Below, piece by piece: positions 22,060-56,714 of a stretch of 56,727 nt of DNA. The translations under genes and the position numbers were made by a program. The stretch is from positions 16,030 through 72,756 of the forward strand of contig CAZKCU010000003.1 of NCBI GenBank assembly GCA_964551595.1, written 5' to 3'. The first letter of the stretch is position 1; every line of letters begins with the position of its first letter. Source of the stretch: an uncultured Candidatus Saccharibacteria bacterium. Lineage in GTDB: Bacteria; Patescibacteriota; Minisyncoccia; Minisyncoccales; CAZKCU01. Below the pieces are notes generated by a model. The model ran no database searches, was not told the DNA's origin, and saw only the letters and a list, made by a program, of their open reading frames with translations.

Positions 22060-22088
22060 TCGCCAAGGTTGCGGTTTTTTGGTAGAAT
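22060..22088 (+). promoter_or_regulatory. Portable hairpin-promoter TCGCCA-17-TAGAAT, leaderless
   Basis: tcgcca-aggttgcggttttttgg-tagaat-aaagt-ATG; same unit at 48594, 49258 and 56681. Confidence 0.7.
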
Positions 22089-22093
22089 AAAGT

Positions 22094-22798
22094 ATGATTG
22101 ACCCTAATAAATTTGAAGTTTTAAGTTTTGATTGTTACGGAACACTTATTGATTGGGAAAGTGGTATTTTGGCGGCACTAAAGCCAGTTTTGTTGAGCTA
22201 TAATAAAGAACTTGACGAGAAGCAGATTCTTGAACTCTATGCGGAAACTGAATCAAAGATAGAAAAAGGTGAATTTATTAAGTACAAAGATGTCCTAAGA
22301 AGGGTGATGCAGGAGATCGGTATTAAACTTGGGTTTAATATTTCTTTCTCTCAACGAGAATGTCTTGTCGATTCATTAAAAAATTGGGAGCCATTTCCAG
22401 ATACGGTAGAAGCATTGCAAAATCTCAAGAAAATGTTTAAGTTGGCGGTTATTTCTAATATTGACAATGACCTTTTCTCTTCATCTGTAAAACACCTAAA
22501 AGTTGAATTTGACTATTTAATCACGGCTGAACAGATGGGAAGCTACAAACCATCATTGAATAACTTCAAGTTTGCTATAGAGAAAATAGGTGTTTCACCC
22601 GAAAAGATTCTACATATTGCACAAAGTATTTATCATGATATTATTCCAGCAAAAACATTGGGTTTATCGACTGTTTGGGTTAACAGAAGGAAGGGTAAAG
22701 AAGGAAGCGGGGCGACTCCTCCAGCAAGCGGCCAACCTGACCTTGAAGTACCTGATTTAAAGAAGTTAGTTCAGATTATAGACTTAGAGTTGAAATAA
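22094..22798 (+). CDS. HAD-superfamily hydrolase, haloacid dehalogenase type II-like
   Basis: FDCYGTLIDWESGI, ISNIDND, SYKPS, HIAQSIYHDIIPA. Confidence 0.9.
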   Translation: MIDPNKFEVLSFDCYGTLIDWESGILAALKPVLLSYNKELDEKQILELYAETESKIEKGEFIKYKDVLRRVMQEIGIKLGFNISFSQRECLVDSLKNWEPFPDTVEALQNLKKMFKLAVISNIDNDLFSSSVKHLKVEFDYLITAEQMGSYKPSLNNFKFAIEKIGVSPEKILHIAQSIYHDIIPAKTLGLSTVWVNRRKGKEGSGATPPASGQPDLEVPDLKKLVQIIDLELK

Positions 22799-22925
22799 GA
22801 AGAGAAAAGCTTGACAAATTTTATAGGATATGCTATTCTAAAAAAAGAAACGAGAATTACTTGTTTCTTTTAGTAGCAACTTAAAATAAAAATACTGGAC
22901 GTAGCAAGAGTGAAAGGAGTAAAAA

Positions 22926-23357
22926 ATGAAGAAAAATCATAGAAAAAGAGTAGTCAGTGTCAATGAAGTGTTTGTTGTTGTGATAGGTTTGATTATTGTA
23001 ATCTTCGCTGTATTGTGTAAGTTTGGACTAATAAGTGGAGATATCGAGATAGAAATACCTCGCAATGATGTTGCTTTTAGAGCTAAGAGAATGTATAGTG
23101 AAGATCTACCAATAATTCCGGTAAGTCGAGAGGAATTCAAGAAGATTGATTTAACTGATGAAGAAAAATTAGTCTTCTTAGATGTTTCTGATTTTCAGTC
23201 TGGTTTGGAGGTTATTAAAATTTGGATCATGGCTGAGGGGAAAATCTTCTTTTACGTAGAAGAGATAAAGGGTTATCCTCTTTTAACGAGTATCAGTGAT
23301 ATTGATGTTCGTTTTTTTTCTCACATAAACAAGATGAAGATAATCTTATATAGGTAG
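22926..23357 (+). CDS. Hypothetical bitopic membrane protein
   Basis: N-terminal TM; promoter TTGACA(22811)-17-TATTCT and AGGAG RBS. Confidence 0.7.
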   Translation: MKKNHRKRVVSVNEVFVVVIGLIIVIFAVLCKFGLISGDIEIEIPRNDVAFRAKRMYSEDLPIIPVSREEFKKIDLTDEEKLVFLDVSDFQSGLEVIKIWIMAEGKIFFYVEEIKGYPLLTSISDIDVRFFSHINKMKIILYR

Positions 23358-23604
23358 ATATTTTGCCTGTGGGGGCTTTTTTATAAAAGTATGGTAATTT
23401 TGTGATAGCGAGTATTATTATTATCTTGCTATCAAACACTATCTAATTTTATTTTCTCTTAAGAAAATCGCCAAAAAGGCGATTTTTAATTAGAAAAATT
23501 GACTTATTTTTGAGTCAGTGCTAAAGTTAAAAAGTGGAGGGCTAATTGAAAGCTCTTTTTATATATATAATTTCTAGCAAATGATAGTAAATAAAGGAGA
23601 CAAA

Positions 23605-24471
23605 ATGAATGTAAGGAAAGGGATTTTAATTATTCTGCTAATAGGGGTATTATTGTTTTTGACAATACCCGGCTGTGCAAGAGAAGGTGATGATGAACCA
23701 GACTTATCCATAGGAACTCCGGGAGAAAATCCAGACGATGAATTACAGATACCAATAGGAACTCCAAGTGATTATTTCCCAATTGATACAGGAAGAGAAT
23801 GGACTTATGAGATAAAAATAGGAGGATCTGAGTCTATATATTATTACGAGACTTCATGGCCATTAGGAGAAGGAAGACTGGTTCAATCTACGACAGGTCG
23901 TTTCATGCCGCTTCTTGAAGATGGACCTCCAAAAAGTTTCCTTCTTAAAATAAGAGTAAAGGGACCTGCAGCTCAACAAGGACCTCTTGAATATCCAACC
24001 GGAGTAGAATTGAAGATTGAAGAAGATGAACTTGGCATTTTTGAATATCACGAGGAAGTCTTTTGGGCGATTACAAACTCGCAAGGATTTATGGCTCAAC
24101 AGGTAGTTACTTTCGCACCCGATACTCTAGGCGCTCCGACCGGAACTTGGGGCAGCTGGGGACAAGAAAAAGGTTATTCAATAAGATTGTTGCTTTTTGG
24201 AGAAGAGCCAGGAATTGGTATAGGATTTGAGAATTCTCCAGATATACTCTATTTCAACGGAATTGAAACCGATGTTCCCGATTACAGGGAAATCCCTTGT
24301 CTTCATTTCCAAAGAGTAGTGAATTTAAAAAAATTAGGAGATGAGGATGAAACTGGTTATACTCTAAACAAAGACTTTACCGAAGATACCTGGTTTGCCA
24401 AGGGAATAGGGCTTGTTCGGCTCGAACAAAAAGTAGAAGGAAAGAGCTCAATGACCTGGATACTTAAATAA
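23605..24471 (+). CDS. Predicted lipoprotein, beta-rich
   Basis: Signal peptide ending LTIPGC; AGGAG RBS before ATG 23605; C-terminal TWFAKGIGLVR motif. Confidence 0.7.
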   Translation: MNVRKGILIILLIGVLLFLTIPGCAREGDDEPDLSIGTPGENPDDELQIPIGTPSDYFPIDTGREWTYEIKIGGSESIYYYETSWPLGEGRLVQSTTGRFMPLLEDGPPKSFLLKIRVKGPAAQQGPLEYPTGVELKIEEDELGIFEYHEEVFWAITNSQGFMAQQVVTFAPDTLGAPTGTWGSWGQEKGYSIRLLLFGEEPGIGIGFENSPDILYFNGIETDVPDYREIPCLHFQRVVNLKKLGDEDETGYTLNKDFTEDTWFAKGIGLVRLEQKVEGKSSMTWILK

Positions 24472-24473
24472 AC

Positions 24474-24522
24474 TAAGAGAAAATCCCTGGGTCTCAAATG
24501 AGATTCAGGGATTTTTATTTTT
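24474..24522. terminator. Bidirectional terminator, copy 1 of a twin pair
   Basis: taagagaaaatccctg...attcagggatttttatttttt. Confidence 0.7.
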
Positions 24523-24988
24523 TGGTCGCTATCGAGGAAAGCTTTTCTTTTTTCAAAGCTTTTTTGAATTTAGAAATATTATCTTTGTCTTTCTGGGTAG
24601 CTTTCAACTCATTCAAAGAATTAAAAACTAAAAAGAGGTCAGACTCAGTACGTTTATCATGAGGAAAATAATAAAACAATATATGGCGACAATTATTGGA
24701 TAATACAGTACCTGCATGAGTCCATACAGCAGAAACATGAAAAGCTCTTTCCCAGGCAGATAAAATTTCTCTCCATAATTCCTTATCATTGGGGAGACTA
24801 TACTGTTGTATCCATTCTCTTCTATCAAAAACCCTTCCTTCCTCTTTGAGCACCCCATTCTTAGAAAAATATATAAGAGAACGAGGTCTGACATAGAAGA
24901 TATATCCGTCAGGAGTTTCTATAATAAAGTCAGTAGCTTCTTTATTGAAAAATTCAATTTTCTTGCAGATAAGACATTTATTATTCAT
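24515..24988 (-). CDS. Hypothetical protein
   Basis: Start MNNKCLICKK at 24988 overlaps the upstream stop (ATGA); the track extends it with a spurious N-terminus. Confidence 0.6.
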   Translation of the reverse strand: MNNKCLICKKIEFFNKEATDFIIETPDGYIFYVRPRSLIYFSKNGVLKEEGRVFDRREWIQQYSLPNDKELWREILSAWERAFHVSAVWTHAGTVLSNNCRHILFYYFPHDKRTESDLFLVFNSLNELKATQKDKDNISKFKKALKKEKLSSIATKK

Positions 24989-25248
24989 CTTTTTCTCACT
25001 CTCCTTTCTTTTTTCAAATTCTTTATGAGGCTTGAAGTCTCTTTGTCGACGATTCCAGTAAAGTAACGAGCGGTGAGAACAGTTAAAATAAGACCCGGGA
25101 TAAGAAAAGCTAACCCTAAAAACCAAATTTTTTCCGGAAAATTACAGACTACTGTTATAAAACCGGCCACTAATAAAGCAAGACCAGCTAAAAACCCAAA
25201 GATTGAAAAAATAGATTTCCTAAATAGATTATTCATTTCTTCTTTCAT
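24985..25248 (-). CDS. Small two-TM hypothetical protein
   Basis: GGAGG RBS; two hydrophobic helices. Confidence 0.6.
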   Translation of the reverse strand: MKEEMNNLFRKSIFSIFGFLAGLALLVAGFITVVCNFPEKIWFLGLAFLIPGLILTVLTARYFTGIVDKETSSLIKNLKKERRVRKR

Positions 25249-25260
25249 ACCTCCTTTTTC

Positions 25261-25395
25261 TTAATTAGTTTTTTTATCATCTCCATCATCCGTTTCTTCA
25301 GCTTCAGAAGAACCGCATGACAAAAGCTCTATTATCGCTGTTTTCTTTTTCTCGTCATCAAATATCTTTCTTCTTATCTTTATTTTTTCAAACAT
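25261..25395 (-). CDS. Small hypothetical protein (44 aa), not in the ORF track
   Basis: MFEKIKIRRKIFDDEKKKTAIIELLSCGSSEAEETDDGDDKKTN; AAAGGA RBS and upstream TTGACT...CATAAT promoter. Confidence 0.4.
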   Translation of the reverse strand: MFEKIKIRRKIFDDEKKKTAIIELLSCGSSEAEETDDGDDKKTN

Positions 25396-25523
25396 TTTTC
25401 AGTCCTTTCTGTTAAGGTTAATATTTAATTTTTGAAGAACAACATCAACTAATTTTAATTATGATATAAAAGGAAATAAAGTCAAATTGGGAGAAGGTTT
25501 TTAGAAAAGAAAATTGTCCGCTA

Positions 25524-25566
25524 TAAGAGAAAATCCCTGAACTTTATTCAGGGATTTTTATTTTTT
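25524..25566. terminator. Terminator, copy 2 of a twin pair
   Basis: taagagaaaatccctgaactttattcagggatttttatttttt. Confidence 0.7.
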
Positions 25567-25600
25567 TCTCGTTTTCCCTTATTTTAATTTTGGCCAGGCT

Positions 25601-25900
25601 CTATTCGAAAGAATCAGGATTTTTCTTATATTTCTTATAATTTTTAATCCACAAAGGCACAAATGCACCGAAAGAAATAATCAAAACAAACAATACAATA
25701 GATGAAAGAATAAGATTATAAAGCGAGAAGCAATACACATTTACCTCTTGTACCTCTTGGACAATCGAATAAATAAAAACGCCTATCATTGAAGGTAAAA
25801 CCACAAACCCTAATACTGACCACCAAATAAATTTTAAGGCTGACTTTTTCACTTTTTTCCTCACTCCTTTCTTAATATTTCTTACTACAAAGTCAGACAA
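25601..25900 (-). CDS. Two-TM hypothetical protein, start uncertain (possible 1-nt frameshift after the GGAGG-ATG at 25920)
   Basis: Hydrophobic helices; the RBS-linked ATG is out of frame by one base. Confidence 0.45.
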   Translation of the reverse strand: MSDFVVRNIKKGVRKKVKKSALKFIWWSVLGFVVLPSMIGVFIYSIVQEVQEVNVYCFSLYNLILSSIVLFVLIISFGAFVPLWIKNYKKYKKNPDSFE

Positions 25901-25909
25901 AGAGATTCA

Positions 25910-26056
25910 TCAGGCAACATTTTTTCCCTCCTTTTTATTCTTTTTCTTATCTTTTGCTGGAGAGTAATATCTACCCATTTGCCTTTCATACTGCCGTGTT
26001 ATTGACCAGGTTAAAGCTCCTAAAGCCATAACACCTATTAAAACAAACCAGATCAT
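25910..26056 (-). CDS. Small single-TM protein (48 aa), not in the ORF track
   Basis: MIWFVLIGVLWLLGALTWSITRQYERQMGRYY...; AGGAG RBS; TTGACG...TAAAAT promoter near 26200. Confidence 0.55.
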   Translation of the reverse strand: MIWFVLIGVMALGALTWSITRQYERQMGRYYSPAKDKKKNKKEGKNVA

Positions 26057-26233
26057 TTTCTTGTCTCTCCTTTCTTGAATAAATTTAAATATACAATAAT
26101 AATAGATAACTTAAATAATATCAGTAAAGCCCAATTATTCCATTGTTAAAGAAACTATTCAATATAATATATTTTACCATAAATTAGCAGATTTCGTCAA
26201 GACTCGTTGACGGATTTCATAAAAAGAAATTTT

Positions 26234-26797
26234 TTACTCGATTCTTCTTACATACTGGCCGGTTTGGGTATTTACCTCAACAATATCTCCCTCTTTAATG
26301 AATAGGGGGACGCTTATTGTGGCTCTGGTTCCCAAAGTAACTTGTTTAGTTCCGGCTTCTGCTCGGCCGGCCCTGATTCCTGGTGGGGCTTCAACAACTT
26401 TTAAATGAACCTTAACTGGTAAAGAAATATTAACAATTTTCCCTTTATAAGCCAGGACTTCAATAGTCTGCTCTGGCTTTAGAAATTGGGACTGAGGGCC
26501 AATTTGACTTTGACTCAAATTAAATCTCTTAGCTGGCTGGTCAACTTCTGAAAAAAAATATTGACTGCGATGAGCATACAAAAACTTTGCCTGAAGTTTC
26601 TTTAATTCTGCCTCTTCAAAAATATCTGAGGGGTGAAAAGTCTGGGAAATTACATTCCCGGTAATCAAATTTTTAATTTTTGCTTGCAAAACAGAATGAC
26701 CTCTTCCTTTAAAAAGAGGCCGAGCTTCCAAAATTTCGTGGGGTTCTTTATTTAAAATAATCCTTAATCCTTTTTTGAGTTCGCTGTAAGAAATCAT
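26234..26797 (-). CDS. efp: Translation elongation factor P
   Basis: KGRG loop, VVEAPPGIRAG, ISVPLFIKEGDIVEVNTQTGQYV. Confidence 0.95.
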   Translation of the reverse strand: MISYSELKKGLRIILNKEPHEILEARPLFKGRGHSVLQAKIKNLITGNVISQTFHPSDIFEEAELKKLQAKFLYAHRSQYFFSEVDQPAKRFNLSQSQIGPQSQFLKPEQTIEVLAYKGKIVNISLPVKVHLKVVEAPPGIRAGRAEAGTKQVTLGTRATISVPLFIKEGDIVEVNTQTGQYVRRIE

Positions 26798-26803
26798 TAT
26801 GAG

Positions 26804-27775: not shown

Positions 27776-27804
27776 TAAAATTTTCAATTTTATAATTTTC
27801 AAAC

Positions 27805-45694: not shown

Positions 45695-46651
45695 ATGAAA
45701 AAATCTAATATACCAATAATAAAACATATCCCCGACTTTTTAGATTATTGTGAAGTTGAAAAAGGTTTAGCAGATAGAACTCAAGAAAATTATCAGCACT
45801 ATCTCCAAAAGCTCGTCTCCTGGCTGAAAAAGACTAAAAAAGAGACTCTCCTACCGCATGAGCTTACGGCTGAGGATATCTGGGCTTACCGCCTATATTT
45901 ATCTCGTTATACAGACGAAAAGGGCCGTCCCTTGAAGAAAGTCACTCAGAACTACTATTTAATCGCTCTAAGAGCCCTCCTGGGTTATTTTACTGCCAAG
46001 GACGTGATTTCGCTCCCTGCTGATAAAATAGCCCTTCCAAAGGACGCCAGAGCCGAAAAAACGGTAAAATTCCTTAATTTAGACCAGGTTGAGAAGCTTT
46101 TACTGGCTCCCAATACCAGTACCCCAATCGGCTTAAGGGACAGGGCTATTTTGGAATCTCTTTTTTCAACCGGTCTTAGAATAGCCGAACTGGTAGCCCT
46201 AAACCGAGAACAGTTTACCAATATAAAAGATAAAAAGGATCTGGAGCTTGGCATTATTGGTAAAGGGGCTCATCCCCGGACAGTTTACTTTTCTGAAAGA
46301 GCTCTTTCTTGGGTTAAGAAATATCTGGATACCCGCAAGGATAAAGAAAAACCATTATTTATACACTATAGAGCCAGACAAAATGCCGAGCCTCGTCTCA
46401 CGGCCCGCTCAATAGAAAGAATCGTCAAAAAATATGCCATCTTAGCTGGCGTTCCTATCTTCACCACTCCCCACACCCTTCGCCACAGCATGGCAACTGA
46501 TCTTTTAACTCAAGGTGTTGATTTAAGAACCATTCAGGAATTTTTAGGTCACAGAAATATTGTCACAACTCAAATATATACCCACGTAACAAACAAACGC
46601 CTCCGCGACATCCACCGCCAGTTCCACAGCGGCAAAAATTTAAAAGAATAA
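45695..46651 (+). CDS. Xer-family tyrosine recombinase
   Basis: SAM-like N-domain; LRDRAILESLFSTGLRIAEL (R), GKG (K), TPHTLRHSMAT (HxxR), LGH, TTQIYTHV (Y); no IntI-specific insertion. Confidence 0.95.
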   Translation: MKKSNIPIIKHIPDFLDYCEVEKGLADRTQENYQHYLQKLVSWLKKTKKETLLPHELTAEDIWAYRLYLSRYTDEKGRPLKKVTQNYYLIALRALLGYFTAKDVISLPADKIALPKDARAEKTVKFLNLDQVEKLLLAPNTSTPIGLRDRAILESLFSTGLRIAELVALNREQFTNIKDKKDLELGIIGKGAHPRTVYFSERALSWVKKYLDTRKDKEKPLFIHYRARQNAEPRLTARSIERIVKKYAILAGVPIFTTPHTLRHSMATDLLTQGVDLRTIQEFLGHRNIVTTQIYTHVTNKRLRDIHRQFHSGKNLKE

Positions 46652-47944: not shown

Positions 47945-48586
47945 TTAATTCCATAAATCTTTTTCTATGACCGTCCAGTCTTTCCGCCTCTTTAAAGATT
48001 TCTCTACTTTTTTAAAGTGCCCTCTTTTTTCAATAAATCCATCTCCGCTTATTTCTTTTCCTTTTTTAGTAAAGAAATCTTTGTTTGTATATTTTCTTTT
48101 AAGAATAAATTGAGCCCACTCTTCTATTGGTCTTTTTAATTCATATTGGGCCCGATAAGTGGAAAACATACCTCCAATTCCACTTTTCTCCAATAAATCA
48201 GCATCAAAGACAATTTTAGATTCTAATGTTTCTTGCGCTCCTCTTTCTTTATGAAGTTTTACGCAATAAGCAATTTGTTCAATTTCTTTCTTTGTATAAC
48301 CCATTTTAGATAAGTCTCGTTTCGTTATTCTAGCACCTACTTCTGCATGTTTTTTATAATCTCTAGCCTCAGTAACTCCGATATCATGAAGAATAATCGC
48401 TGGAATTAAAACAGAATAATCAACGTCCTTAATTGTTTCAGCAATAACTAATCCCCTATATAAATCCCTTATTATATGTTCCCAATTATGCTGAGGTTTG
48501 TTTGCTTTTAAATATTTCTTCTTTGCGTAGTTATAAACCCTCTTAATCCTTTTGTCTTTTTTAATAAAATAGTTAATTTTTTTCAT
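47945..48586 (-). CDS. HD-domain phosphohydrolase
   Basis: HNWEHIIR, IILHDIG, HAEVGA, VFDADLLE; ATG 48586 lies 7 nt after the -10 box. Confidence 0.88.
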   Translation of the reverse strand: MKKINYFIKKDKRIKRVYNYAKKKYLKANKPQHNWEHIIRDLYRGLVIAETIKDVDYSVLIPAIILHDIGVTEARDYKKHAEVGARITKRDLSKMGYTKKEIEQIAYCVKLHKERGAQETLESKIVFDADLLEKSGIGGMFSTYRAQYELKRPIEEWAQFILKRKYTNKDFFTKKGKEISGDGFIEKRGHFKKVEKSLKRRKDWTVIEKDLWN

Positions 48587-48593
48587 ATTATTC

Positions 48594-48626
48594 ATTCTAA
48601 CAAAAAACTGCCTTCTTGGCGATTTT
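48594..48626 (-). promoter_or_regulatory. Portable hairpin-promoter, leaderless
   Basis: tcgcca-agaaggcagttttttgt-tagaat-gaataat-ATG. Confidence 0.7.
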
Positions 48627-48675
48627 TTTTGAATTTAGCTCCGGGGACTAGACTATATTAAAATCTGTTTGAGAC

Positions 48676-49251
48676 TTATTGTTCTTCATGTTTTACTTCT
48701 TCTGGAAACAATAACTGAAATGGATAACCTACGTAATTTCTTTTTATTTGTCCACAACCAACGCTTTTAAGAAAATCAATCATTTCTTCTGTAATCTTTT
48801 TTGGGTCCACCTTTTCTTCTTTCCCAATATACTCAATTTCTACAAAATCTCCAAGCCCTTTTACTGAATCTACGGCAATCTCATAATCCTTATATGTCCA
48901 AACTTTTCTTAATTTGTCTACTTTAACAAGAGGCTTAAAATTAAGAACATCTAATATCTTCCTTAATTGAGTTAAATCTTCTATTTTGGTTTCGTATTCA
49001 TCACAATACTGACTTCTACCATTTTCATCATAATGCCAGTTTTTATAATTTATAGAATATTTACCGCCAGAATCTCTTAACCTCAACCACTTCTTAACTG
49101 GACGAACATCAATAAAATTACGATGAATTGGAGAAAAATATTCATCTATTTGCTGTCTTTCTTTTTGAAAGTCAGCATTCTTTTCTAAAAATTCTATTAA
49201 GGGTTTACCATTTTCAATAGTAACTTGAATTTCTATTTCAATGTCTTTCAT
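48676..49251 (-). CDS. CYTH-domain protein (class IV adenylate cyclase-like)
   Basis: EIEIQV, QIDEYF, LRLR, EYETKI, KLRKVW, GDFVEIE. Confidence 0.88.
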   Translation of the reverse strand: MKDIEIEIQVTIENGKPLIEFLEKNADFQKERQQIDEYFSPIHRNFIDVRPVKKWLRLRDSGGKYSINYKNWHYDENGRSQYCDEYETKIEDLTQLRKILDVLNFKPLVKVDKLRKVWTYKDYEIAVDSVKGLGDFVEIEYIGKEEKVDPKKITEEMIDFLKSVGCGQIKRNYVGYPFQLLFPEEVKHEEQ

Positions 49252-49257
49252 GTTTTC

Positions 49258-49290
49258 ATCTTACCAAAAAACCGCCTACTTGGCGATTTT
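49258..49290 (-). promoter_or_regulatory. Portable hairpin-promoter, leaderless
   Basis: tcgcca-agtaggcggttttttgg-taagat-gaaaac-ATG. Confidence 0.7.
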
Positions 49291-49331
49291 ATATTTATAT
49301 CCCCTACTCTTTTGTACCCTTTGTCTATTTT

Positions 49332-50368: not shown

Positions 50369-50486
50369 AGTTTCTTAATAAAACGGCACTTTTTGTTGGC
50401 ATATAATTATTCTCGATATACTGTCTGATAATATACCAAAACCATCTTTTGAGAAATCGATCGAAATCAGCTCTCTTAACAATAAT

Positions 50487-50663
50487 CTATTTACTTAAAA
50501 TCTCAAAAGCTTGATAGACTAAAAATGCTGGCCAGACCAAAGCTTTTAAAAAACCAAGAACCCCCATCCAAAATGTTTCAGAATGACTGATAAAATAGAC
50601 GGCTGCGCCGATAAGTCCCAGGCCGTAAACCGCGCTGGCCCCGCCTTTATGAATGTTGCACAT
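50487..50663 (-). CDS. Small membrane protein (58 aa), not in the ORF track
   Basis: MCNIHKGGASAVYGLGLIGAAVYFISHSETFWMGVLGFLKALVWPAFLVYQAFEILSK. Confidence 0.75.
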   Translation of the reverse strand: MCNIHKGGASAVYGLGLIGAAVYFISHSETFWMGVLGFLKALVWPAFLVYQAFEILSK

Positions 50664-50745
50664 AGTTTTTTATTTCGAGCGAAGCGAGAAAAAATGTTCT
50701 GCCTCGCAGGTTCTTATTAATTATTTTTACACTTCGACCTAAATT

Positions 50746-51273: not shown

Positions 51274-51317
51274 AATCTTAAAAATTTTTTCCAGCTTCGG
51301 CCAAAATTTTGATTATT

Positions 51318-51779
51318 TTATACTAAAATTCCGCCGGCGTAGAAAAACGTATAAATTTCTTTATCTCTCTTGAGAATCTTTTCCGCGCCAGCTAACTCAT
51401 CAATAGAACCTTTAAAATCCGGCTGGCAAATATATTTATAATCATCTTTCTCCTATTCTACTTTTTTCCAAATTCTTACATTTTGCCAATTTGCTATAAG
51501 TGCTTTCCTTAAAATTTTATCCATTTCCTCTTCGGACATCCCTTTATAGTTTCCATAATACGACATTGACCAAACAGCTTTCTCCTGATAATAAACAGCT
51601 TCCAGTCCCATAAAAATTCCCTTTCCATTATAATAAACATCCCGATAAAACCAATCCCCTTCTCTATATTCAAGTTGATCTGAACCCTTAAAAACCGGCT
51701 TTACTTTTCCACCAGCTCCGGCATAAGTTTTCGTCCTCGCATTTAATAAAAATTGTAAGAGTTTCTCTTTATCTACCAT
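51318..51779 (-). pseudogene. DUF5680-like protein interrupted by an in-frame TAG at 51455-51453
   Basis: FLLNARTKTYAG...YRDVY.G...F.G.E; the frame continues 44 codons after TAG to YTFFYAGGILV. Confidence 0.75.
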
Positions 51780-51824
51780 TTTTTATTTTTATTATCCCCT
51801 ACTCTTTTATATTTGGGCTAAATT

Positions 51825-52106
51825 TTAATTATTTCCGAAACCAATCTTTTCTTGCCCTCCAGTTTCTCTTTTTTCGAGAAGCTGAGTTTCAAGTGGACCA
51901 AATTTCTTTTCGTATTCATTAAGAGATTTACCCAGAAGTAAATAAATTCGCTTTGCATGTTTCGGTGATACTTGAAACTGACGACCTTGATTCCCTGAAA
52001 TCAATAGGAAATCAAAAACTTCTTCCCCAAAGCGTATATTAACGTTAGAGAGCGCGTAAAGAATCGGATCAAGATTAATTTTAATTTGTTTTTGTTCTTC
52101 TGCCAT
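51825..52106 (-). CDS. DUF3467-like hypothetical protein
   Basis: SPKHAKRI...LNEYEKKFG pattern. Confidence 0.6.
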   Translation of the reverse strand: MAEEQKQIKINLDPILYALSNVNIRFGEEVFDFLLISGNQGRQFQVSPKHAKRIYLLLGKSLNEYEKKFGPLETQLLEKRETGGQEKIGFGNN

Positions 52107-52173
52107 ATTTTCAAAAATTTAATTTTAATTAATTCTTCGACTTTTTTTAAATTCCCTTTAACTTCGGGCTAAA

Positions 52174-52215
52174 TTATTCTTCAGTTGAAACTCTGGCTAA
52201 AATTAAAGCTTTCAT
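52174..52215 (-). pseudogene. Serine recombinase N-terminal stub MKALILARVSTEE
   Basis: Matches the resolvase N-terminal YARVST motif; stop coincides with the shared junction motif. Confidence 0.6.
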
Positions 52216-52242
52216 AAATTGTATAATTATTCCACAGTAACA

Positions 52243-52701
52243 CTAAAAGAAGATACGCAAAGTGCCCTGTATCCATTTTATAGCTCGTTTCAATATGCTC
52301 ACTTTCTCATTCATCATTCCCATACTGGAATTACATTGTCTACAAACCCATCCCCTTATCTCGCCAGTTTCGGAGTTGTGGTCTAATACAACATCGTTTT
52401 TATATTGCCTGATTATCGTTCTATCACAAACGGGGCAATGAAAAGGCTTACCTATAGGTGGTCGTGGGTGTGTTTTTTCATACTCAATCCTTATTTTGAT
52501 GGGTATGGGTTTTCTCCACTTGCGGCATTCCTTACACTCACCTCTTCTTGAGACTTTGCCTCTAATAGTTCTTTGATTCTTTTCAAACTCAAAAATGCTT
52601 TTCCGTTGTTGGCAAGTGCGGCATATTTTTGTTTCGTTGAAACAGGAATCACAAAACTTTCCATGTGTCGCCTTATTACGATTACATTCAATACATTTCA
52701 T
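52243..52701 (-). CDS. Hpy99I-like beta-beta-alpha-Me (endonuclease VII type) restriction endonuclease
   Basis: KICRTC...FEKNQ...CKECRK, FHCPVC, LDHNSETGEIRGWVCRQCNSSMG. Confidence 0.75.
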   Translation of the reverse strand: MKCIECNRNKATHGKFCDSCFNETKICRTCQQRKSIFEFEKNQRTIRGKVSRRGECKECRKWRKPIPIKIRIEYEKTHPRPPIGKPFHCPVCDRTIIRQYKNDVVLDHNSETGEIRGWVCRQCNSSMGMMNEKVSILKRAIKWIQGTLRIFF

Positions 52702-53522
52702 AAAAGATTCTTAATTCTTTTTTGTGCTATCTTATAATACTTATTAGATAATTCACTACCTATATATTTTCTATTGTTGAGAATAGCCATTTTTGCTGTC
52801 GTGCCACTACCTATGAAGGGGTCGTATACAATATCACCTTTATTACTCCATGAGATTATATGGTCTTGTGCCAACTTTTCTGGGAATATGGCGGGATGTT
52901 CATAAGCAATTTTATCACTTGCGGAGTGCCCCTTTCCTATAAGATATTTCCACACATTTGTTCGCCTGCCGTATTTAGAATATCCAGCCCTACTTTGTTT
53001 CAATAGTGAGCCATCATACAGCCGTTTTGTGCCGTTATCGCCACCTCGCTCCTCTTTATTCTCCCTGTCTTTTATAAGATTTATTGTCTTTGGTGTATCT
53101 TTGCTTAATATGAACATATACTCAAATGTCTGCCAGTATGTTTTATTATTTCCAACTGCTCCTCGTGGTGTTTTAAGGTATATCATTGTGTCAAAAAGAT
53201 TAAAACCTATCTGTTTGAAATATAGAGCGTGTCTGAAAGACGTTCCTGTTTCGTTTCCCTTAACTGTTTGATCTCCGACAACCCACACAACTACACCCCC
53301 CCTTTTAGTAACACGATATAGCTCTTGTGCTATCAATTCAAATTCACTAAAAGTGTCGCCACCATATTTTCGTATATTATCATACGGAGGCGAGGTTATT
53401 GTTAAATCAACAAAATTGTTAGGCATTTTTGCCATAGTGTATAGGCAATTTTCATTATAGATTTTGTTTAATTTAAGACCCCTCTCCTTTATTGGACTTT
53501 TGTTTTTATTTTGTCTTTGCAT
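52698..53522 (-). CDS. N4-cytosine/N6-adenine DNA methyltransferase (beta class)
   Basis: TSPPY, HPAIFP, VYDPFIGSGTT; overlaps the endonuclease start. Confidence 0.92.
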   Translation of the reverse strand: MQRQNKNKSPIKERGLKLNKIYNENCLYTMAKMPNNFVDLTITSPPYDNIRKYGGDTFSEFELIAQELYRVTKRGGVVVWVVGDQTVKGNETGTSFRHALYFKQIGFNLFDTMIYLKTPRGAVGNNKTYWQTFEYMFILSKDTPKTINLIKDRENKEERGGDNGTKRLYDGSLLKQSRAGYSKYGRRTNVWKYLIGKGHSASDKIAYEHPAIFPEKLAQDHIISWSNKGDIVYDPFIGSGTTAKMAILNNRKYIGSELSNKYYKIAQKRIKNLL

Positions 53523-53631
53523 ATTCTAGAAATCTGTTTAATTCCTTTTTATCAATTCTAAACTCTTTGCCTATTTTGTAGGCTTTCAATACTAATTCCC
53601 TTACAAGGTAGAATTTTTTTTGGTCATTCAT
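53506..53631 (-). pseudogene. HTH_17 excisionase-like gene with the central helices deleted (41 aa)
   Basis: MNDQKKFYLVREL//VLKAYKIGKEFRIDKKELNRFLEY. Confidence 0.6.
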
Positions 53632-53646
53632 GATTGTAAGTATTCA

Positions 53647-54039
53647 TTATTTAATTTCTTCTTCAATTTCTTCGTCAATTTTAGCTAAAGATTTTTTCAT
53701 TTCTTTTATAATTAAAAAAAAGAGCATTTTCTTGTTAAACTCCCTTTCTTCCTTGCCTGTTATTATTTTTTCAAAGGATTGAAAAACTTCCTTAGGAAAA
53801 TAAAATTGAAGATCGCTTATCATATCTATGTCATAACTGTTCTTTGTCATCCCGTCTAATATTTCTTTTTTGGCCTTATTAAACACTTGCTCTAATTTAT
53901 CTCGCCTCAATCTTAAGTGTTGAATTTTTATTTCTTTTTTCCATTTTCGGTAGTTTAAAAAATGTGTAATAAATTGAGCAACAGTTACGATGAGGCCACC
54001 AATTATAACACCAATTAAACCGATTATAGCTTCTGACAT
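53647..54039 (-). CDS. Hypothetical protein with an N-terminal TM
   Basis: IIGLIGVIIGGLIVTVAQFI followed by a charged helical domain. Confidence 0.7.
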   Translation of the reverse strand: MSEAIIGLIGVIIGGLIVTVAQFITHFLNYRKWKKEIKIQHLRLRRDKLEQVFNKAKKEILDGMTKNSYDIDMISDLQFYFPKEVFQSFEKIITGKEEREFNKKMLFFLIIKEMKKSLAKIDEEIEEEIK

Positions 54040-54126
54040 AGTTTTAATAATTTAATTTATGTTTCAACACTGCTTTCATTATACTTTACAATTATTTACA
54101 GGACAATGGAGCAAATATAAGTTTAA

Positions 54127-54224
54127 ATGTCGCACAAGATGCGTAGTGCGACGTAAAAAACCACTTTCTTGAGAGAGCGGCGGCCGAAATCGGGACTACT
54201 GCCCTAGTTAGACAATATTAGAGC
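54127..54224 (+). repeat. Cassette trailer copy A, with a symmetric 28-bp site
   Basis: ATGTCGCACAA-GATGCG-TAGTGCGACGT, terminator-like hairpin, ccctagttagacaatattagagc. Confidence 0.75.
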
Positions 54225-54238
54225 TTGTTTAGTGCGGG

Positions 54239-54622
54239 TTATTTATTTTTTGCTTTGTATTTTGCAACTAGAAAACCAATCTGTTGCCCGACGGCTAACG
54301 ATAATAAGAGTATGGTAATTTTTTTATTGCTCCCAATAATGCCCTCGATTATATAAGAAATTATGGCAAAAATTAATAAAAAAATAAAAAGGGCGTTTCT
54401 TTTTTGTCTATTGGCAAATTTATCGCCAATATATTGTCCAATGTTCAATACAAAGAAAAACATACTAATATTTTTTTCTTTTCCAGTGATACTTTCAAGT
54501 ATATAAAAAAATATAGTAAAAATTAATAAAAAAATCGAAAGAAAGTTTTTTCTTGTTACAATATATATTGATTTTTGATACCACTTAGTCATATAGTTGT
54601 TTACTTTTATAATTTTATTCAA
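54239..54622 (-). CDS. Membrane protein with two internal ~49-aa repeats, start uncertain
   Basis: IFLLIFTIFFYILESITG...IGQYIG versus IFLLIFAIISYIIEGIIG...VGQQIG. Confidence 0.6.
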   Translation of the reverse strand: MNKIIKVNNYMTKWYQKSIYIVTRKNFLSIFLLIFTIFFYILESITGKEKNISMFFFVLNIGQYIGDKFANRQKRNALFIFLLIFAIISYIIEGIIGSNKKITILLLSLAVGQQIGFLVAKYKAKNK

Positions 54623-54928
54623 AAAAACCTACCTGCCTAATAAAATCAACCAGCTTTGAAATATAACCATAGGCTAATTACTATATATATCTAGCAATAA
54701 GAGGCCAAACAAAACACAAAATCGCAAGTATTCTTAAAATCCATTTTTCTGAATTTTTTGTCGCTTTTGTGCAAAATATAAAAAAACAACTCCTACAATC
54801 CAAGAACCAAAAACTGCTATAACCATAAATTAGTTCAATATTTAATCTTATGAATTTGACCTTTCTTCTCTAATCCTACCAAAAAACCGTCTAAGTAAAT
54901 AGGCGGAATTCCCGGATCCGCGGGTAAG

Positions 54929-55085
54929 ATTCTAACTAATACAAATTATGCGACATTGACTCCTCATTCATAGATTGTGAGACAAGATAAGCTTTTGACT
55001 CCTCATTGATGCGTAGTGCGACGTAAAAACCGCCTTCTTGAGAAAGCGGCTGAACTGATCTCCCCTAGCTGGACGATGTTAGAAC
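54929..55085 (+). repeat. Cluster of three 28-bp dif-like sites plus cassette trailer copy B
   Basis: Sites at 54929-54956, 54958-54985 and 54997-55024, then aaaaaccgcc hairpin and ccctagctggacgatgttagaac. Confidence 0.75.
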
Positions 55086-55101
55086 CTGTTTTTAAAAGAT
55101 G

Positions 55102-55128
55102 AGAGAGCGTTCGTTAGGAACGCTCTCT
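55102..55128. terminator. Hairpin terminator
   Basis: agagagcgttc-gttag-gaacgctctct. Confidence 0.7.
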
Positions 55129-55149
55129 TGAGAAAATCCTCTTGGCTGA

Positions 55150-56055
55150 TTAATGTTCGAATATCCTTATACTAAGCTTTCCTCCGTGCTCTGTCGCTTC
55201 TTTTATTGAGTGCAACCAAAATACTTCCTGAAACGATTTAGATTCTTTTTCGGCTTCCCGCATATAATCTACTATTTGCTTTGTGTATTCTCGTAGACTG
55301 ATGGCGAAAATTCTGGATAGTTCATCGTTAACAAATCCTTCCAAAAATGAGTCTGTTCCTCTCAGAAATCTTTTCCTAGATTGTCTTTGGCGAGTTAGAA
55401 CTTCTGCCATATCTCTAAGTATACAAAGTATATCGCTAACCATTCCAGTTAAGACTTTTGATACCTCATGAGCTTTTTCGAGGTTTTGGTTGACCTTTTT
55501 CCACTTAATACTTGAAATCGAATCATATTGGGGAATTAAATCAATTCTTACGGCTTCCTCGCCGTTATACATATAATTCTGCAACTTACTATCTCCAGGA
55601 ATAACTCCCTTTAAGCAAAAGAGGTAAACTGTCTTGCCCAGGGCTTTCAATTCTTTATGCGGTATTACTACCCGGAAAAAGGAAATCCCTTCATCAGCTA
55701 AGATAATTTCTTTATAATCTCTCCCGTTTATTCTATCGATTATTACTATGTCTCCTACGTTGTCATTGTTCACGCCCATTGCTACAGGGTTCTCTACGGG
55801 TAATCCTAGGCTCTGGCAGTACTTTAAGAATCCAAAAGATTCGGGAGGGTAAAATTTAAGCAAATATCTTCCGAATCTATATGTGTGTTCTGTTAGTATT
55901 TCGGGCTCAAGGCTCGAAAGATAACCTAAAATTACCGCCAAATCTATACCTTTAGGTGAATAAAAGTCTTTTATTCCTATCTTTTTCAAATCCCCCTTAG
56001 CCTTCATTCTGTGATACTGACCTACGAATTCTGTGCCTATTATTTTATTTTTCAA
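55150..56055 (-). CDS. Hypothetical protein, probable atypical kinase fold (Kdo/WaaP/RIO-like)
   Basis: YLLKFY, GLPVENP, GVIPGDSKLQNYM, VRIDL; TTGACA-17-TATAAT promoter and AGGAGG RBS. Confidence 0.55.
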   Translation of the reverse strand: MKNKIIGTEFVGQYHRMKAKGDLKKIGIKDFYSPKGIDLAVILGYLSSLEPEILTEHTYRFGRYLLKFYPPESFGFLKYCQSLGLPVENPVAMGVNNDNVGDIVIIDRINGRDYKEIILADEGISFFRVVIPHKELKALGKTVYLFCLKGVIPGDSKLQNYMYNGEEAVRIDLIPQYDSISSIKWKKVNQNLEKAHEVSKVLTGMVSDILCILRDMAEVLTRQRQSRKRFLRGTDSFLEGFVNDELSRIFAISLREYTKQIVDYMREAEKESKSFQEVFWLHSIKEATEHGGKLSIRIFEH

Positions 56056-56222
56056 GGTGCCCTCCCTCCTTATTATTGACTTATGATTTATTTTTTATGA
56101 TTTATTTTTTAGTTAATTTAGAATTCTTAATTATACAATTCATATTTAATTTTGTCAATAAAAAGCGGCATAGTGGCTTAAAATATTTTGCTCCAGAGGT
56201 AAGGCTCGAACCAATAAAAATC

Positions 56223-56312
56223 TTGACTCCTCATTGATGCGTAGTGCGACGTAAAAAACCGCCCAAATAAATAGGCAGAATCTCGGCTCCCTTGGCTGGA
56301 CGATGTTAGAAC
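56223..56312 (+). repeat. Cassette trailer copy C, with a 28-bp site identical to 54997-55024
   Basis: GACTCCTCATT-GATGCG-TAGTGCGACGT, hairpin, ccttggctggacgatgttagaac. Confidence 0.8.
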
Positions 56313-56317
56313 TTTTT

Positions 56318-56674
56318 TTATTTAGATTTCATAATCTTACTAACTTTAACCAATATAGCGCCTTTGGCGGGCAGTCCTCTATTTTCTTTTAATTTCTTTA
56401 CATATTGAATCCATTTCCCTTTTTTAAAATATTTACACCTACCAAGAAATTGGTATCCTTCCCACTTCTTATCCCAAACTATTAATGCAACATTATTGTT
56501 TTTAAGAATGTTTTCTACTGTAATCTTCATAAAACTATCGGTTACCAATATCTCATCGTTGCCCATAACCTTACAACAAGCGACAGCGATAGCATAAGGT
56601 TTACCATCTCTAACAGTGGCGAGGGTCATAGGGTTTTCTTCAACTATCTTTTTAATCTTTGGGGTAATTTTCAT
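56318..56674 (-). CDS. Pyridoxamine 5'-phosphate oxidase-like FMN-binding protein
   Basis: LATV..GKPY, D.FM..T.ENILKNNNVALIVW, GYQFLG. Confidence 0.85.
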   Translation of the reverse strand: MKITPKIKKIVEENPMTLATVRDGKPYAIAVACCKVMGNDEILVTDSFMKITVENILKNNNVALIVWDKKWEGYQFLGRCKYFKKGKWIQYVKKLKENRGLPAKGAILVKVSKIMKSK

Positions 56675-56680
56675 ATTTCC

Positions 56681-56714
56681 ATTCTACCAAAAAATCGCCT
56701 TCTTGGCGATTTTC
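56681..56714 (-). promoter_or_regulatory. Portable hairpin-promoter, leaderless
   Basis: aaaa-tcgcca-agaaggcgattttttgg-tagaat-ggaaat-ATG. Confidence 0.72.

Follow-up and report, generated by a model that had tools for sequence, protein, structure and literature searches.

A candidate terminator-promoter unit preceding predicted leaderless genes in Patescibacteria

Four copies of a short unit and their relatives

Four unrelated genes in the window (the whole 56,727-nt stretch of DNA that was analysed) are each preceded by a unit of 33-35 bases. The initial annotation had described this unit as TCGCCA, 17 nt and TA(G/A)(A/G)AT with a TG extension, placed 5-7 nt before the ATG of HAD, HD, CYTH and PNPOx-like genes, and both the pattern and its position hold, with Pfam assignments in agreement. 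TCGCCA-N17-TARRAT matches the window exactly four times, against 0.03 matches expected from shuffles (four or more in 0/100 shuffles), and all four copies carry the TG extension (TGG or TGT before TA). They have in common TCGCCAAG, 7 nt and TTTTTTG[G/T]TA[G/A][A/G]AT. Beyond these four headers, TCGCCAAG occurs only twice in the window, both times within coding sequence; generic promoter-like matches in the AT-rich window DNA showed no enrichment over shuffles.

Table 1. Features of the window that bear on the unit.
Feature	Position	Strand	Details
Hairpin-only relative, longer stem	1050..1074		AAAATCGCCCC-TGA-GGGGCGATTTT; -23.7 kcal/mol; 3' of ORF 444-1010; followed by no -10 box
Like architecture, unrelated stem	6643..6687	+	GAGAGAC...GTCTCTC hairpin after tRNA-Glu, T6, GGA, TATAAT, 6 nt, ATG of 859-aa ORF
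Separate intrinsic-terminator-like hairpin	22026..22054	+	GCCCA-CCGC-TGGGC + AATTTTT; immediately 5' of header copy 1
Header copy 1	22052..22096	+	Pattern match 22060-22088; A/T-rich lead-in; TCGCCA 22060-22065 (-35-like), degenerate right arm TTGCGG, T6 22075-22080, GG, TAGAAT 22083-22088 (-10); 5 nt, then HAD gene ATG at 22094
HAD-family hydrolase gene, predicted leaderless	22094..22798	+	Pfam HAD_2 1.5e-16
Hairpin-only relative, perfect	23464..23496	+	AAAATCGCC-AAAAA-GGCGATTTTT; -12.9 kcal/mol; decayed -10 (TTAGAAA)
Separate promoter-like site	23499-23527	+	TTGACT-17-TAAAGT; 3' of hairpin 23464-23496
HD-domain phosphohydrolase gene, predicted leaderless	47945..48586	-	Pfam HD 4.2e-08; start is the ATG 7 nt past the -10 box
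Header copy 2	48584..48630	-	Pattern match 48594-48622; A8 tract, TCGCCA 48622-48617, loop AAGAA, right arm GGCAG, T6, GT, TAGAAT 48599-48594; 7 nt, then HD gene ATG 48586-48584
Upstream module, diverged copy	48631..48670	-	aaaCA GGTTCTAACATCGTCC ... GGAGCTAA; between CYTH stop codon and header copy 2
CYTH-domain gene, predicted leaderless	48676..49251	-	Pfam CYTH 9e-21
Header copy 3	49249..49290	-	Pattern match 49258-49286; AAAA, TCGCCA, loop AAGTA, GGCGG, T6, GG, TAAGAT; 6 nt, then CYTH gene ATG 49251-49249
Membrane-peptide ORF, 30 codons	54734-54826	-	After the 46-nt leader
Leader, 46 nt	54827-54872	-	AAAGGTC near its 5' end; 3' of variant header
Variant header, different weak stem	54873..54906	-	CCGCC...GACGG; -7.3 kcal/mol, z -1.7; T6, GG, TAGGAT (GGTAGGAT)
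PNPOx-like gene, predicted leaderless	56318..56674	-	Pfam PNPOx_N 6e-12
Header copy 4, perfect form	56672..56713	-	Pattern match 56681-56709; AAAA-TCGCC-AAGAA-GGCGA-T6-GG-TAGAAT; 6 nt, then PNPOx-like gene ATG 56674-56672

The spacer had been described as a GC hairpin plus T6. The T6 is present in every copy, but the hairpin is not contained in the spacer alone: the '-35' hexamer contributes its first five bases and the spacer supplies the remainder, and the fold is good only in copies 2, 3 and 4 (-7.7, -10.5 and -16.6 kcal/mol; z-scores -3.4, -4.1 and -7.0). The stem has a GC core of just 4-5 bp, and a simple terminator scan did not call copies 2-4, because the T-run of perfect copies is mostly paired with the A-run. 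In copy 1 the hairpin is at the level of shuffled sequence (-3.5 kcal/mol, z -0.25). The separate hairpin next to it, which is preceded by a SLOG/LOG-like gene (21450-22013), reaches -8.8 kcal/mol (z -1.76; equal folding in 10/200 shuffles), and the same pairing of separate hairpin and header is found in four other loci (L043, L076, L115 and L117). Copy 1 appears to have lost its own hairpin and to rely on the separate terminator. An assembled contig (48435-48731) from a single RNA run with low-depth contigs spans copy 2 uninterrupted, and represents either read-through or contaminating DNA.

Three relatives of the unit had also been listed. Two proved to be hairpins with a decayed -10 box or none, as described, whereas the third, near the membrane-peptide ORF, has a different, weak stem. 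The like architecture after tRNA-Glu, built on an unrelated stem, indicates that this genome generally tends to merge terminators with leaderless promoters.

Promoter spacing and position of the start codon

Among strict copies followed by an ORF of at least 40 aa, 27 have the ATG 6 nt past the -10 box, and gaps of 7, 8 and 9 nt account for 11, 9 and 5 more, respectively. In 626 ORFs of the comparison loci, which are crude longest-ORF calls from loci chosen for carrying the motif, TAnnAT showed a peak 6 nt before the ATG (65 versus a background of ~10), as did TGnTAnnAT (42 versus 1-2). Since an ATG 6 nt past the -10 box coincides with the expected start site, leaderless messages look general in these genomes.

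A -10 motif located 6-7 bp before ORFs has been shown experimentally to drive leaderless genes in Deinococcus (PMC12340547; also PMC3160421). Leaderless genes of Deinococcus-Thermus and Actinobacteria (PMC12340547, PMC3160421) likewise have a TAnnnT-type -10 box 6-7 nt before the start codon and no Shine-Dalgarno site, and are numerous within a genome. The present case differs in its extended -10 box (TGnTAGAAT) in a Patescibacteria genome of 35% G+C, and in that roughly half of the same-direction junctions have this box fused with the conserved hairpin and its T-run.

Loss of the 17-bp spacing in additional copies had been named beforehand as evidence against the terminator-plus-promoter reading; among copies not chosen by spacing, 29/36 have TCGCC and the -10 box 17 nt apart. 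TCGCCA matches TTGACA at only 4/6 positions, a point against a -35 role. The left arm retains T, G, C and A of this hexamer at 17 bp, and TTGCC variants come nearer to the -35 consensus at the price of a wobble pair. In copy 1, TCGCCAAG is perfect despite the lost hairpin and the separate upstream terminator, which counts for a -35 role.

The hairpin and the direction of the upstream gene

The upstream neighbour points in the same direction in 122/125 header copies, compared with a baseline of 560:66 (binomial p = 6e-4). Candidate leaderless promoters have a T-run in 59/114 cases with a same-direction neighbour versus 2/16 divergent ones (Fisher p = 0.003), and several divergent promoters consist of plain TTGACA-like boxes ~17 nt from a -10 box of TGnTAnAAT type. 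The combination of hairpin and T-run is therefore found almost only at junctions with a same-direction upstream gene. Across 120 strict copies, hairpin energy has a median of -11.5 kcal/mol.

Pairing of the arms was analysed at 102 sites anchored on the T-run and -10 box only. The first base of the left arm is T in 74% of these, and the partner position holds A in 45 sites and G in as many; T-A closes the stem in 35, T-G in 34 and C-G in 4. Equal use of A and G as closing partner points to RNA-type pairing. The two arms tend to be present together (odds ratio 10.9, p = 3e-7), sites that seemed to have a right arm only mostly have a displaced complementary left arm and a longer loop, and variant stems still pair (TCGCT/AGCGA, CTACC/GGTGG, CTGCCC/GGGTAG).

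These patterns bear on an alternative raised in the initial annotation, namely that the palindrome AAAATCGCC-N5-GGCGATTTT is a regulator operator defining a regulon. In a more specific form of this idea, a dimeric repressor would bind across -40 to -16 of the promoter and control 'house-cleaning' phosphohydrolases (HAD, HD, CYTH, NUDIX, Maf). The palindrome covers the promoter core, its stem and loop letters are kept more than pairing requires, the unit is retained by orthologues across species, and these families do recur among the 65 proteins downstream of headers (CYTH 4, NUDIX 3, HD 3, HAD 3, Maf 2). However, the same 65 proteins comprise 91 Pfam families, and no candidate regulator was identified. 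The half-sites are also asymmetric, the left T being fixed and its partner equally A or G, which is acceptable for RNA pairing but would not be for a symmetric DNA site; where stems carry paired changes, or a displaced arm and longer loop, the hairpin is retained and the sequence is not; and dependence on the direction of the upstream gene is unexpected of an operator. We regard this alternative as quite unlikely.

We consider it reasonably probable, instead, that in this unit an intrinsic terminator and an extended -10, housekeeping-type promoter occupy the same 33-35 bases, with the 5' arm of the stem also serving as the -35 box. In the RNA of the upstream gene, AAAA-UCGCC-AAnnn-GGCG(A/G)-UUUUUU would fold into a hairpin with a GC core and a trailing U-run, ending the transcript. 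At the DNA level the A-run would occupy the position of an UP-like element, TCGCCA would act as a GC-enriched -35 box in which T1, G3, C5 and A6 of TTGACA are kept, the 17-bp spacer, ending in TTTG, would consist of the remaining hairpin and the T-run, and TGnTAGAAT would be the extended -10 box. Transcription would then start ~7 nt downstream, at the A of the ATG, and the mRNA would therefore have neither a leader nor a Shine-Dalgarno site. Such double use would explain why the sequence is so constant: sigma-factor contacts would constrain the left arm, the need to pair with it the right arm, and termination plus the -16 region the T-run. The unit would be placed where a stand-alone gene follows a same-direction gene, as a standard and partly propagating part in Nealsonbacteria-like Patescibacteria. 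The idea of one part serving both to insulate a gene from upstream transcription and to initiate a leaderless mRNA thus survives at its core as the best explanation, because the ATG lies at the expected start, the 17-bp spacing is kept, the hairpin is tied to same-direction neighbours and the closing pair is of RNA type, although the function itself is read from sequence.

Intrinsic (Rho-independent) terminators, including symmetric A-tract/T-tract forms, likewise have a GC-cored stem-loop, T6 and an upstream A-run after a same-direction gene. Ordinary ones keep pairing alone, whereas the stem sequence of the unit is nearly invariant across species, its 5' arm sits exactly at the -35 position of the next promoter, and its T-run lies in the spacer of that promoter. 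Some 20 TCGCC-AAGAA-GGCGR hairpins in forward orientation have stem and loop exactly preserved but no intact -10 box, and TCGCC stems make up the majority of all hairpin-plus-T5 sites in the comparison genomes; the stem may therefore be constrained by something other than -35 function.

Distribution across Patescibacteria and evidence for mobility

In a scan of a genome collection, a stricter 29-nt pattern matched more than 117 stretches from at least 76 assemblies, nearly all of them, among the matches listed, Patescibacteria (Nealsonbacteria/Paceibacteria). Strict copies often number 2-4 per 8 kb on the same strand. The shared form, AAAA-TCGCC-AAnnn-GGCGR-T6-GnTAGAAT, is kept almost letter for letter across at least 76 species. 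As the initial annotation had asked, orthologues elsewhere were inspected, and the header recurs before orthologous CYTH, HD, Maf and RlmE-like methyltransferase genes in different species (HD orthologues, 3/4 loci; CYTH family members, 4/7 loci). The unit therefore does not bear out the proposed local 'cassette header' for accessory genes; it appears to be a clade-wide promoter architecture, with nothing special to the window.

Correia elements of Neisseria and REP/ERIC-type repeats are short palindromes repeated between genes; they can provide promoters and can also terminate or stabilise transcripts. The hairpin could be a REP-like repeat, either a self-propagating or gene-converted extragenic palindrome or a protein-bound 3' stabiliser of the upstream mRNA, with the promoter co-opted secondarily. 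The prevalence of TCGCC-type stems, some lacking a -10 box, fits this idea, as do genome-specific variants repeated before unrelated genes (twice each in L034 and L027), a near-identical stretch (one mismatch) from upstream hairpin through ATG that is present twice in L088, and the slightly greater likeness of copies from the same genome. Yet copies are as alike between the at least 76 species as within genomes, which selection fits better than recent spread. Every copy is oriented as its flanking genes and sits at an exact distance from the ATG, and the unit has no terminal inverted repeats, target duplication, inverted doublets or transposase; no IS200/RAYT-type gene was seen among 30 window ORFs scanned, and the motif was absent from 2.9 million viral contigs. 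We judge a REP-like origin unlikely.

Putative mobile promoters (Matus-Garcia, Nijveen and van Passel 2012; PMC3575422), for which Correia, ERIC and REPIN elements are named as carriers, likewise comprise highly similar sequences before unrelated genes, within and between genomes, without a known mobile element. The criterion for them was a stretch of 50 nt or more with at least 80% identity, located from -150 to -50, whereas the unit of 33-35 nt lies at -45 to -6 from the ATG and its similarity would be explained largely by function and not by recent copying.

A recombinase could also move single-gene, self-promoted cassettes in an integron-like exchange, with the header and a preceding GGTTCTAAC...GGAGC module as their edges. 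This module, whose window copy was compared with about 45 copies in other loci, follows header genes six times more often (16/90 versus 27/777, p = 1.3e-6). Identity of 97% with a complete Nealsonbacteria genome stops precisely where header copy 1 has its first base (22060), with other genes beyond; a 96%-identity block shared with L014 (55093-56199) has modules at its bounds; four genomes have a header after tRNA-Asn; and the window contains a tyrosine recombinase gene (45695-46651). In integrons, too, the gene cassettes with attC sites are small and unrelated, stand in same-direction arrays and each have a conserved imperfect palindrome as their boundary. The 3' end of the unit, G[G/A/T]TA[G/A]AAT, nevertheless agrees with a -10 box but departs from the integron core site GTTRRRY, every cassette would have a promoter of its own, and a divergent intI-attI-Pc platform is lacking. 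The recombinase is convergent with the array, which has the housekeeping gene YceG inside it; clean presence or absence of cassettes was not seen in the dominant strains of four metagenomes; and the sides of the reported joints measure 20-48 nt, as short shared repeats would give. Such cassettes seem very unlikely.

Portability, as first proposed, is supported in part: the genome-specific variants before unrelated genes and the homology breaks at the edge of the unit speak for it, and the retention of the unit by orthologous genes across species speaks against it. That the unit is discrete is seen from the segment 56681-56713, which alone is matched by 9-12 contigs in each of two metagenomes, where both flanks differ.

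Structure of the header in the window

The window has a G+C content of 34.6% and contains two tRNAs and the housekeeping genes for CysS, DnaX, EF-P, Fmt and YceG, together with those for GltX, MurG, FtsW and a Mur ligase (the last four from Pfam labels on the source contig, which is identical). Salt-marsh and sediment metagenomes contain identical or near-identical DNA, and the complete Candidatus Nealsonbacteria genome CP179888 matches parts of the window at 89-97% identity. Judging from these genes and matches, the window comes from the chromosome of a member of the Patescibacteria with a small genome.

The initial annotation had described a pattern, TCGCCA-17-TA(G/A)(A/G)AT with a TG extension, located 5-7 nt upstream of the ATG of four unrelated genes. 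Each element of this description was recovered: TCGCCA-N17-TA(G/A)(A/G)AT matches the window exactly four times (0.03 matches from shuffles), the spacing to the ATG is as described, and Pfam assigns the four products to different families. The three decayed or hairpin-only relatives listed with these copies all exist. Common to the four copies, hereafter headers, is TCGCCAAG followed by 7 nt and TTTTTTG(G/T)TA(G/A)(A/G)AT, and TCGCCAAG has just two further occurrences in the window, both within genes. The -10 box is TAGAAT or TAAGAT and is preceded in all four copies by TGG or TGT, as in extended -10 promoters. TCGCCA agrees with TTGACA at 4/6 positions at a distance of 17 bp from the -10 box, and is a candidate -35 box.

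A GC hairpin had been placed in the spacer. This hairpin is real in copies 2-4 (z -3.4 to -7.0), which have the stem-loop and T-run of an intrinsic terminator, but it draws on bases 1-5 of the '-35' hexamer as well as on the spacer, and copy 1 (z -0.25) does not have the stem-loop of a terminator. An independent terminator hairpin lies just 5' of copy 1. The stem has a short GC core, and pairing between the A-run and the T-run is possible; a simple terminator rule applied to the window did not call copies 2-4, because the stem reaches into the T-run.

A -10 box also precedes the ATG by 6-7 nt in many other window genes, and an unrelated hairpin with T6 that follows tRNA-Glu is fused likewise to TATAAT. 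Predicted leaderless starts and merged signals are therefore a habit of the whole genome.

Features of the window associated with the header, and neighbouring elements
Feature	Position	Strand	Details
Header copy 1	22060	+	-10 to ATG 5 nt; HAD_2; hairpin -3.5 kcal/mol
Header copy 2	48594	-	-10 to ATG 7 nt; HD; hairpin -7.7 kcal/mol
Header copy 3	49258	-	-10 to ATG 6 nt; CYTH; hairpin -10.5 kcal/mol
Header copy 4	56681	-	-10 to ATG 6 nt; PNPOx_N; hairpin -16.6 kcal/mol
Header relatives	23464; 1050		
Header copy with leader	54873	-	also listed as a relative
Leader	54827-54872	-	
ORF after leader	54734-54826	-	
Independent terminator hairpin	22026-22054		
Hairpin, T6 and TATAAT	6643-6687	+	after tRNA-Glu
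Other -10 boxes 6-7 nt before ATG	17737; 31415; 33744; 47320; others		
Module	48631-48670; 55060-55086; 56286-56313	-	
tRNA-3'-end-like fragment	56189-56212	-	GGTTCGAGCCTTACCTCTGGAGCA
30-nt repeat	54995-55024; 56223-56252	-	ACGTCGCACTACGCATCAATGAGGAGTCAA
Motif before SLOG/LOG-like, NUDIX and 93-aa genes	21404-21428 (+); 51285-51309 (-); 52151-52175 (-)		AAATTTAGGCCGAAGTTGAGGGAAA
Short repeat	49298-49311	-	AAGAGTAGGGGATA; upstream of copy 3
Short repeat	51793-51806	-	AAGAGTAGGGGATA; upstream of DUF5680 gene
Tyrosine recombinase gene	45695-46651	+	
Phage-like gene cluster	51453-53522	-	DUF5680, endonuclease VII, N6/N4 DNA methylase
Block shared with CP179888 (L028)	21422-22060		97%, 639 bp
Block shared with L014	55093-56199		96%, 1.1 kb
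Block shared with L063	26230-29350		89%, 3.1 kb

Distribution, start codons and proposed termination

A genome-wide scan for TCGCCAAG-N7-TTTTTTGNTANNAT, as had been proposed, was performed on a collection with one genome per species and returned at least 117 stretches, mostly in Patescibacteria (loci from other genomes are labelled L006-L122). About 15 of the listed matches are in Firmicutes and other phyla and were treated as chance, since most of them are without a TCGCC/GGCGR hairpin. The remaining listed matches, from at least 76 assemblies, belong to Nealsonbacteria, Paceibacterota/Parcubacteria, Minisyncoccales and unnamed Patescibacteria. Among the matches listed, many 8-kb loci carry 2-4 copies on one strand only, and the seven free bases are nearly always nnGGCG(A/G), giving the consensus AAAAA-TCGCC-AAGnn-GGCGR-TTTTTT-G(G/A)-TAGAAT; the -10 variants in 131 of these listed copies (TAGAAT, TATAAT, TAAAAT, TAAGAT, TAGGAT) fit TAnAAT. 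A second search of those loci, with the T-run and -10 box alone fixed, gave 226 sites, comprising 120 strict copies and 106 others, about 60 of which are of a relaxed form, with ATCGCC or ATTGCC, a changed loop, or a different stem in which pairing is kept. A phage origin was rejected, as the header pattern had no match in 2.9 million viral contigs. Some contigs labelled Aenigmatarchaeota, Gammaproteobacteria or Saccharibacteria (L049, L062, L070, L097 and 'Saccharibacteria' binchicken loci) carry headers and modules (the second intergenic motif described below) as in Nealsonbacteria genomes, which suggests mis-binning or coarse labels.

The 17-bp spacing, on which the original proposal depended, is kept in additional copies: TCGCC lies 17 bp from the -10 box in 29/36 copies not chosen for spacing. 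TTGACA-like boxes occur in several hairpin-free promoters of the same loci, and several divergent promoters have a plain TTGACA-like box about 17 nt from a -10 box of the TGnTAnAAT type, which shows the form of the -35 box in these organisms. Among the matches listed, the gap between the -10 box and the ATG has its mode at 6 nt in 135 strict copies, and the first ATG opening an ORF of at least 40 codons follows the strict -10 box at 6 nt (n=27), 7 nt (n=11), 8 nt (n=9) or 9 nt (n=5); with a 6-nt gap, the canonical start site is predicted to coincide with the A of the ATG. Over the 626 ORFs of the loci, TAnnAT is likewise most frequent 6 nt before the ATG (65 versus a background of about 10), as is TGnTAnnAT (42 versus 1-2). 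An ATG at the predicted start, as expected of leaderless genes with no Shine-Dalgarno site, was thus found after the four window copies and marks the most frequent -10 spacing in the 135 strict copies and the 626 ORFs, and the leaderless arrangement holds generally in the clade. In Deinococcus, the same arrangement of -10 box and ATG was first predicted (PMC3160421) and later found by experiment to give leaderless mRNAs (PMC12340547). The region was found in one metatranscriptome only, as contigs of depth 2-6, and one contig from an RNA run spans copy 2. A generic promoter scan gave promoter-like matches not above those in shuffles.

If the hairpin and T-run end an upstream transcript, they are expected only where the upstream gene has the same direction. 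Among the matches listed, the upstream neighbour is transcribed towards the hairpin in 122/125 copies, compared with a baseline of 560:66 for all ORFs (p = 6e-4), and the median hairpin energy over 120 copies is -11.5 kcal/mol. At candidate leaderless promoters, a T-run is present at 59/114 same-direction junctions versus 2/16 divergent ones (p = 0.003).

Hairpin arms and the genes served

The palindrome had alternatively been proposed to be a regulator operator defining a regulon. A dimeric repressor would constrain both half-sites alike, and we therefore compared the arms at 102 sites anchored on the T-run and -10 box alone. This symmetry was absent: T opens the left arm in 74% of sites, whereas the base opposite is divided equally between A (45) and G (45) (closing pairs T-A 35, T-G 34, C-G 4). 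In RNA, U pairs with A or G, and so the right arm varies as one side of an RNA stem would; the fixed T at left calls for another cause, and T1 of a -35 box fits. The two arms co-occur (odds ratio 10.9), most 'right-arm only' sites have a displaced complementary left arm, and some variant stems are altered on both sides, so that the hairpin is kept. Copy 1 has retained TCGCCAAG despite the decay of its hairpin. Taken together, these patterns favour a stem arm that may double as the -35 box, and the operator of a dimeric repressor is disfavoured.

In Nealsonbacteria-like Patescibacteria, the header is probably a terminator merged with a promoter and used across the clade for leaderless genes. 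In this merged unit, the stem arm TCGCCA would double as the -35 box, keeping the T-G-CA of TTGACA with positions 2 and 4 changed to C for stem strength, and the U-run of the terminator would double as the promoter spacer, with the hairpin and T-run ending the upstream transcript. The mechanism originally put forward, in which the header insulates a gene and starts a leaderless mRNA, is the best supported, by the leaderless gap and the orientation of neighbouring genes, although it is restated as clade-wide and not specific to accessory genes. The unit combines known kinds of element, namely intrinsic terminators, extended -10 promoters, leaderless genes and promoter reuse. A literature search found neither an earlier description of the merged unit nor an account of promoters or terminators in Patescibacteria, a clade that is mostly uncultivated. 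If correct, this reading would provide a sequence rule by which, in hundreds of small genomes, the borders of transcription units and the correct start codons could be located, and would make leaderless translation common in the clade. It would also represent a compact natural case of double use (stem as -35 box, U-run as spacer), and the 35-bp 'stop, start, no leader' part could be useful as an insulating expression part.

Among the matches listed, 65 downstream proteins match 91 Pfam families, and those that recur are methyltransferases and small phosphohydrolases: CYTH (4), class I methyltransferases (4), NUDIX (3), HD (3), HAD (3) and Maf (2). The comparison with orthologous genes elsewhere that had been suggested found the header, among the matches listed and in several species, in CYTH (4/7), HD (3/4), Maf (2/3) and RlmE-like enzyme (4/12) family members. 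It was never present at housekeeping operon genes in the loci compared, and synteny around header genes was not kept across the sampled species. These observations indicate that the header is for the most part passed on together with the gene behind it and is a mark of stand-alone genes; as a tag it is not confined to accessory genes. Among the matches listed, 16 copies, including one in the window, are followed by an AT-rich leader of about 30-45 nt with AAAGGTC(G) near its 5' end; 15 of these copies are from other loci. In this subclass, many ORFs have a start resembling that of a small membrane or secreted protein, and their ATG lacks a nearby Shine-Dalgarno site.

Portability and neighbouring repeats

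The idea of a portable unit is borne out in part. Genome-specific variants stand before unrelated genes (twice each in L034 and L027), and L088 contains a near-identical stretch twice, with one mismatch, from the upstream hairpin through the ATG. The block shared with CP179888 ends exactly at the first base of copy 1, and what follows in CP179888 is a TTGACT-17-TAAAAT promoter of the plain type, plus other genes. Two metagenomes each contain 9-12 contigs whose match is confined to 56681-56713, with both flanks different, and these alignments define a discrete 33-nt unit. Such edges raise the idea that these units ease the shuffling of single genes. However, copies from the same genome are barely more alike than copies from different species; we therefore conclude that dual-function selection accounts for most of the resemblance, to which duplication or gene conversion has added some local spread. 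Putative mobile promoters have been defined as at least 50 nt, at least 80% identical and within -150 to -50 of unrelated genes (PMC3575422), whereas the shared unit here is 33 nt at -45 to -6, and longer genome-specific variants reach about 58-65 nt (L088) in some cases only.

The hairpin may instead be a REP-like element or the target of a protein reading the hairpin, since the exact stem and loop recur in about 20 hairpins that have no -10 box, and TCGCC stems dominate all hairpin-plus-T5 sites. REP/REPIN elements, however, are recognized by inverted doublets together with a RAYT (IS200-like) gene, whereas header copies are co-oriented with genes and form no inverted doublets, and no RAYT gene was found among the 30 window ORFs scanned.

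A second conserved motif, the module aaaCA GGTTCTAACATCGTCC N7-10 GGAGC(A/T)A, lies just past stop codons and often directly before a header, with about 100 copies in L006-L122 among the matches listed. We regard it as improbable that headers and GGTTCTAAC...GGAGC modules border self-promoted single-gene cassettes recombined among Patescibacteria, partly at tRNA-Asn, which would amount to an integron-like system without a common promoter. The module is indeed six times more frequent after header genes than after others; however, in four DNA metagenomes the joints that could reflect cassette presence or absence have sides of only 20-48 nt and arise from further copies of the short repeats instead of from deletions. 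Integron attC sites, with GTTCTAAC upstream and G(G/T)TAGAAT downstream as inverse and core sites, were also rejected: most copies have GGTA or GATA, not GTT, with a 3' end of G[G/A/T]TA[G/A]AAT, and no covariation was seen between the two ends. Integron cassettes have RYYYAAC...GTTRRRY core sites, are promoterless and lie next to intI, whereas each header gene has its own promoter. The tyrosine recombinase gene of the window adjoins the array and is convergent with it.

The module had no Rfam match at E up to 10. ARAGORN found no tRNA or tRNA-like RNA at modules, only true tRNA-Asn genes before some headers. A coding relic was likewise rejected, as the short conserved peptides that its reverse strand encodes on paper (L...DDVRT...IP.L) lie in frames never longer than 108 codons and have no Pfam match; the codon-position test was ambiguous, with position 2 varying least and position 1 similar to position 3.

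In L009, L019, L036 and L085, a tRNA-Asn(GTT) gene is directly followed by a header. The window contains a tRNA-3'-end-like fragment but no tRNA at that place, and pseudo 3' ends in L085 and L057 are followed by the same sequence as the real tRNA, like attachment-site duplicates. The 30-nt repeat follows a hairpin and T-run at both of its places in the window and is also present in L014 and L041; about 40 nt beyond the first-listed copy there is a third, partial one, ATGAGGAGTCAA. The motif AAATTTAGGCCGAAGTTGAGGGAAA directly abuts the header in L006, L027 and L047. At the DNA level the window is a mosaic: three blocks align with other genomes, that shared with L014 being bounded by GGTTCTAAC modules, and most of the window has no alignment to other species.
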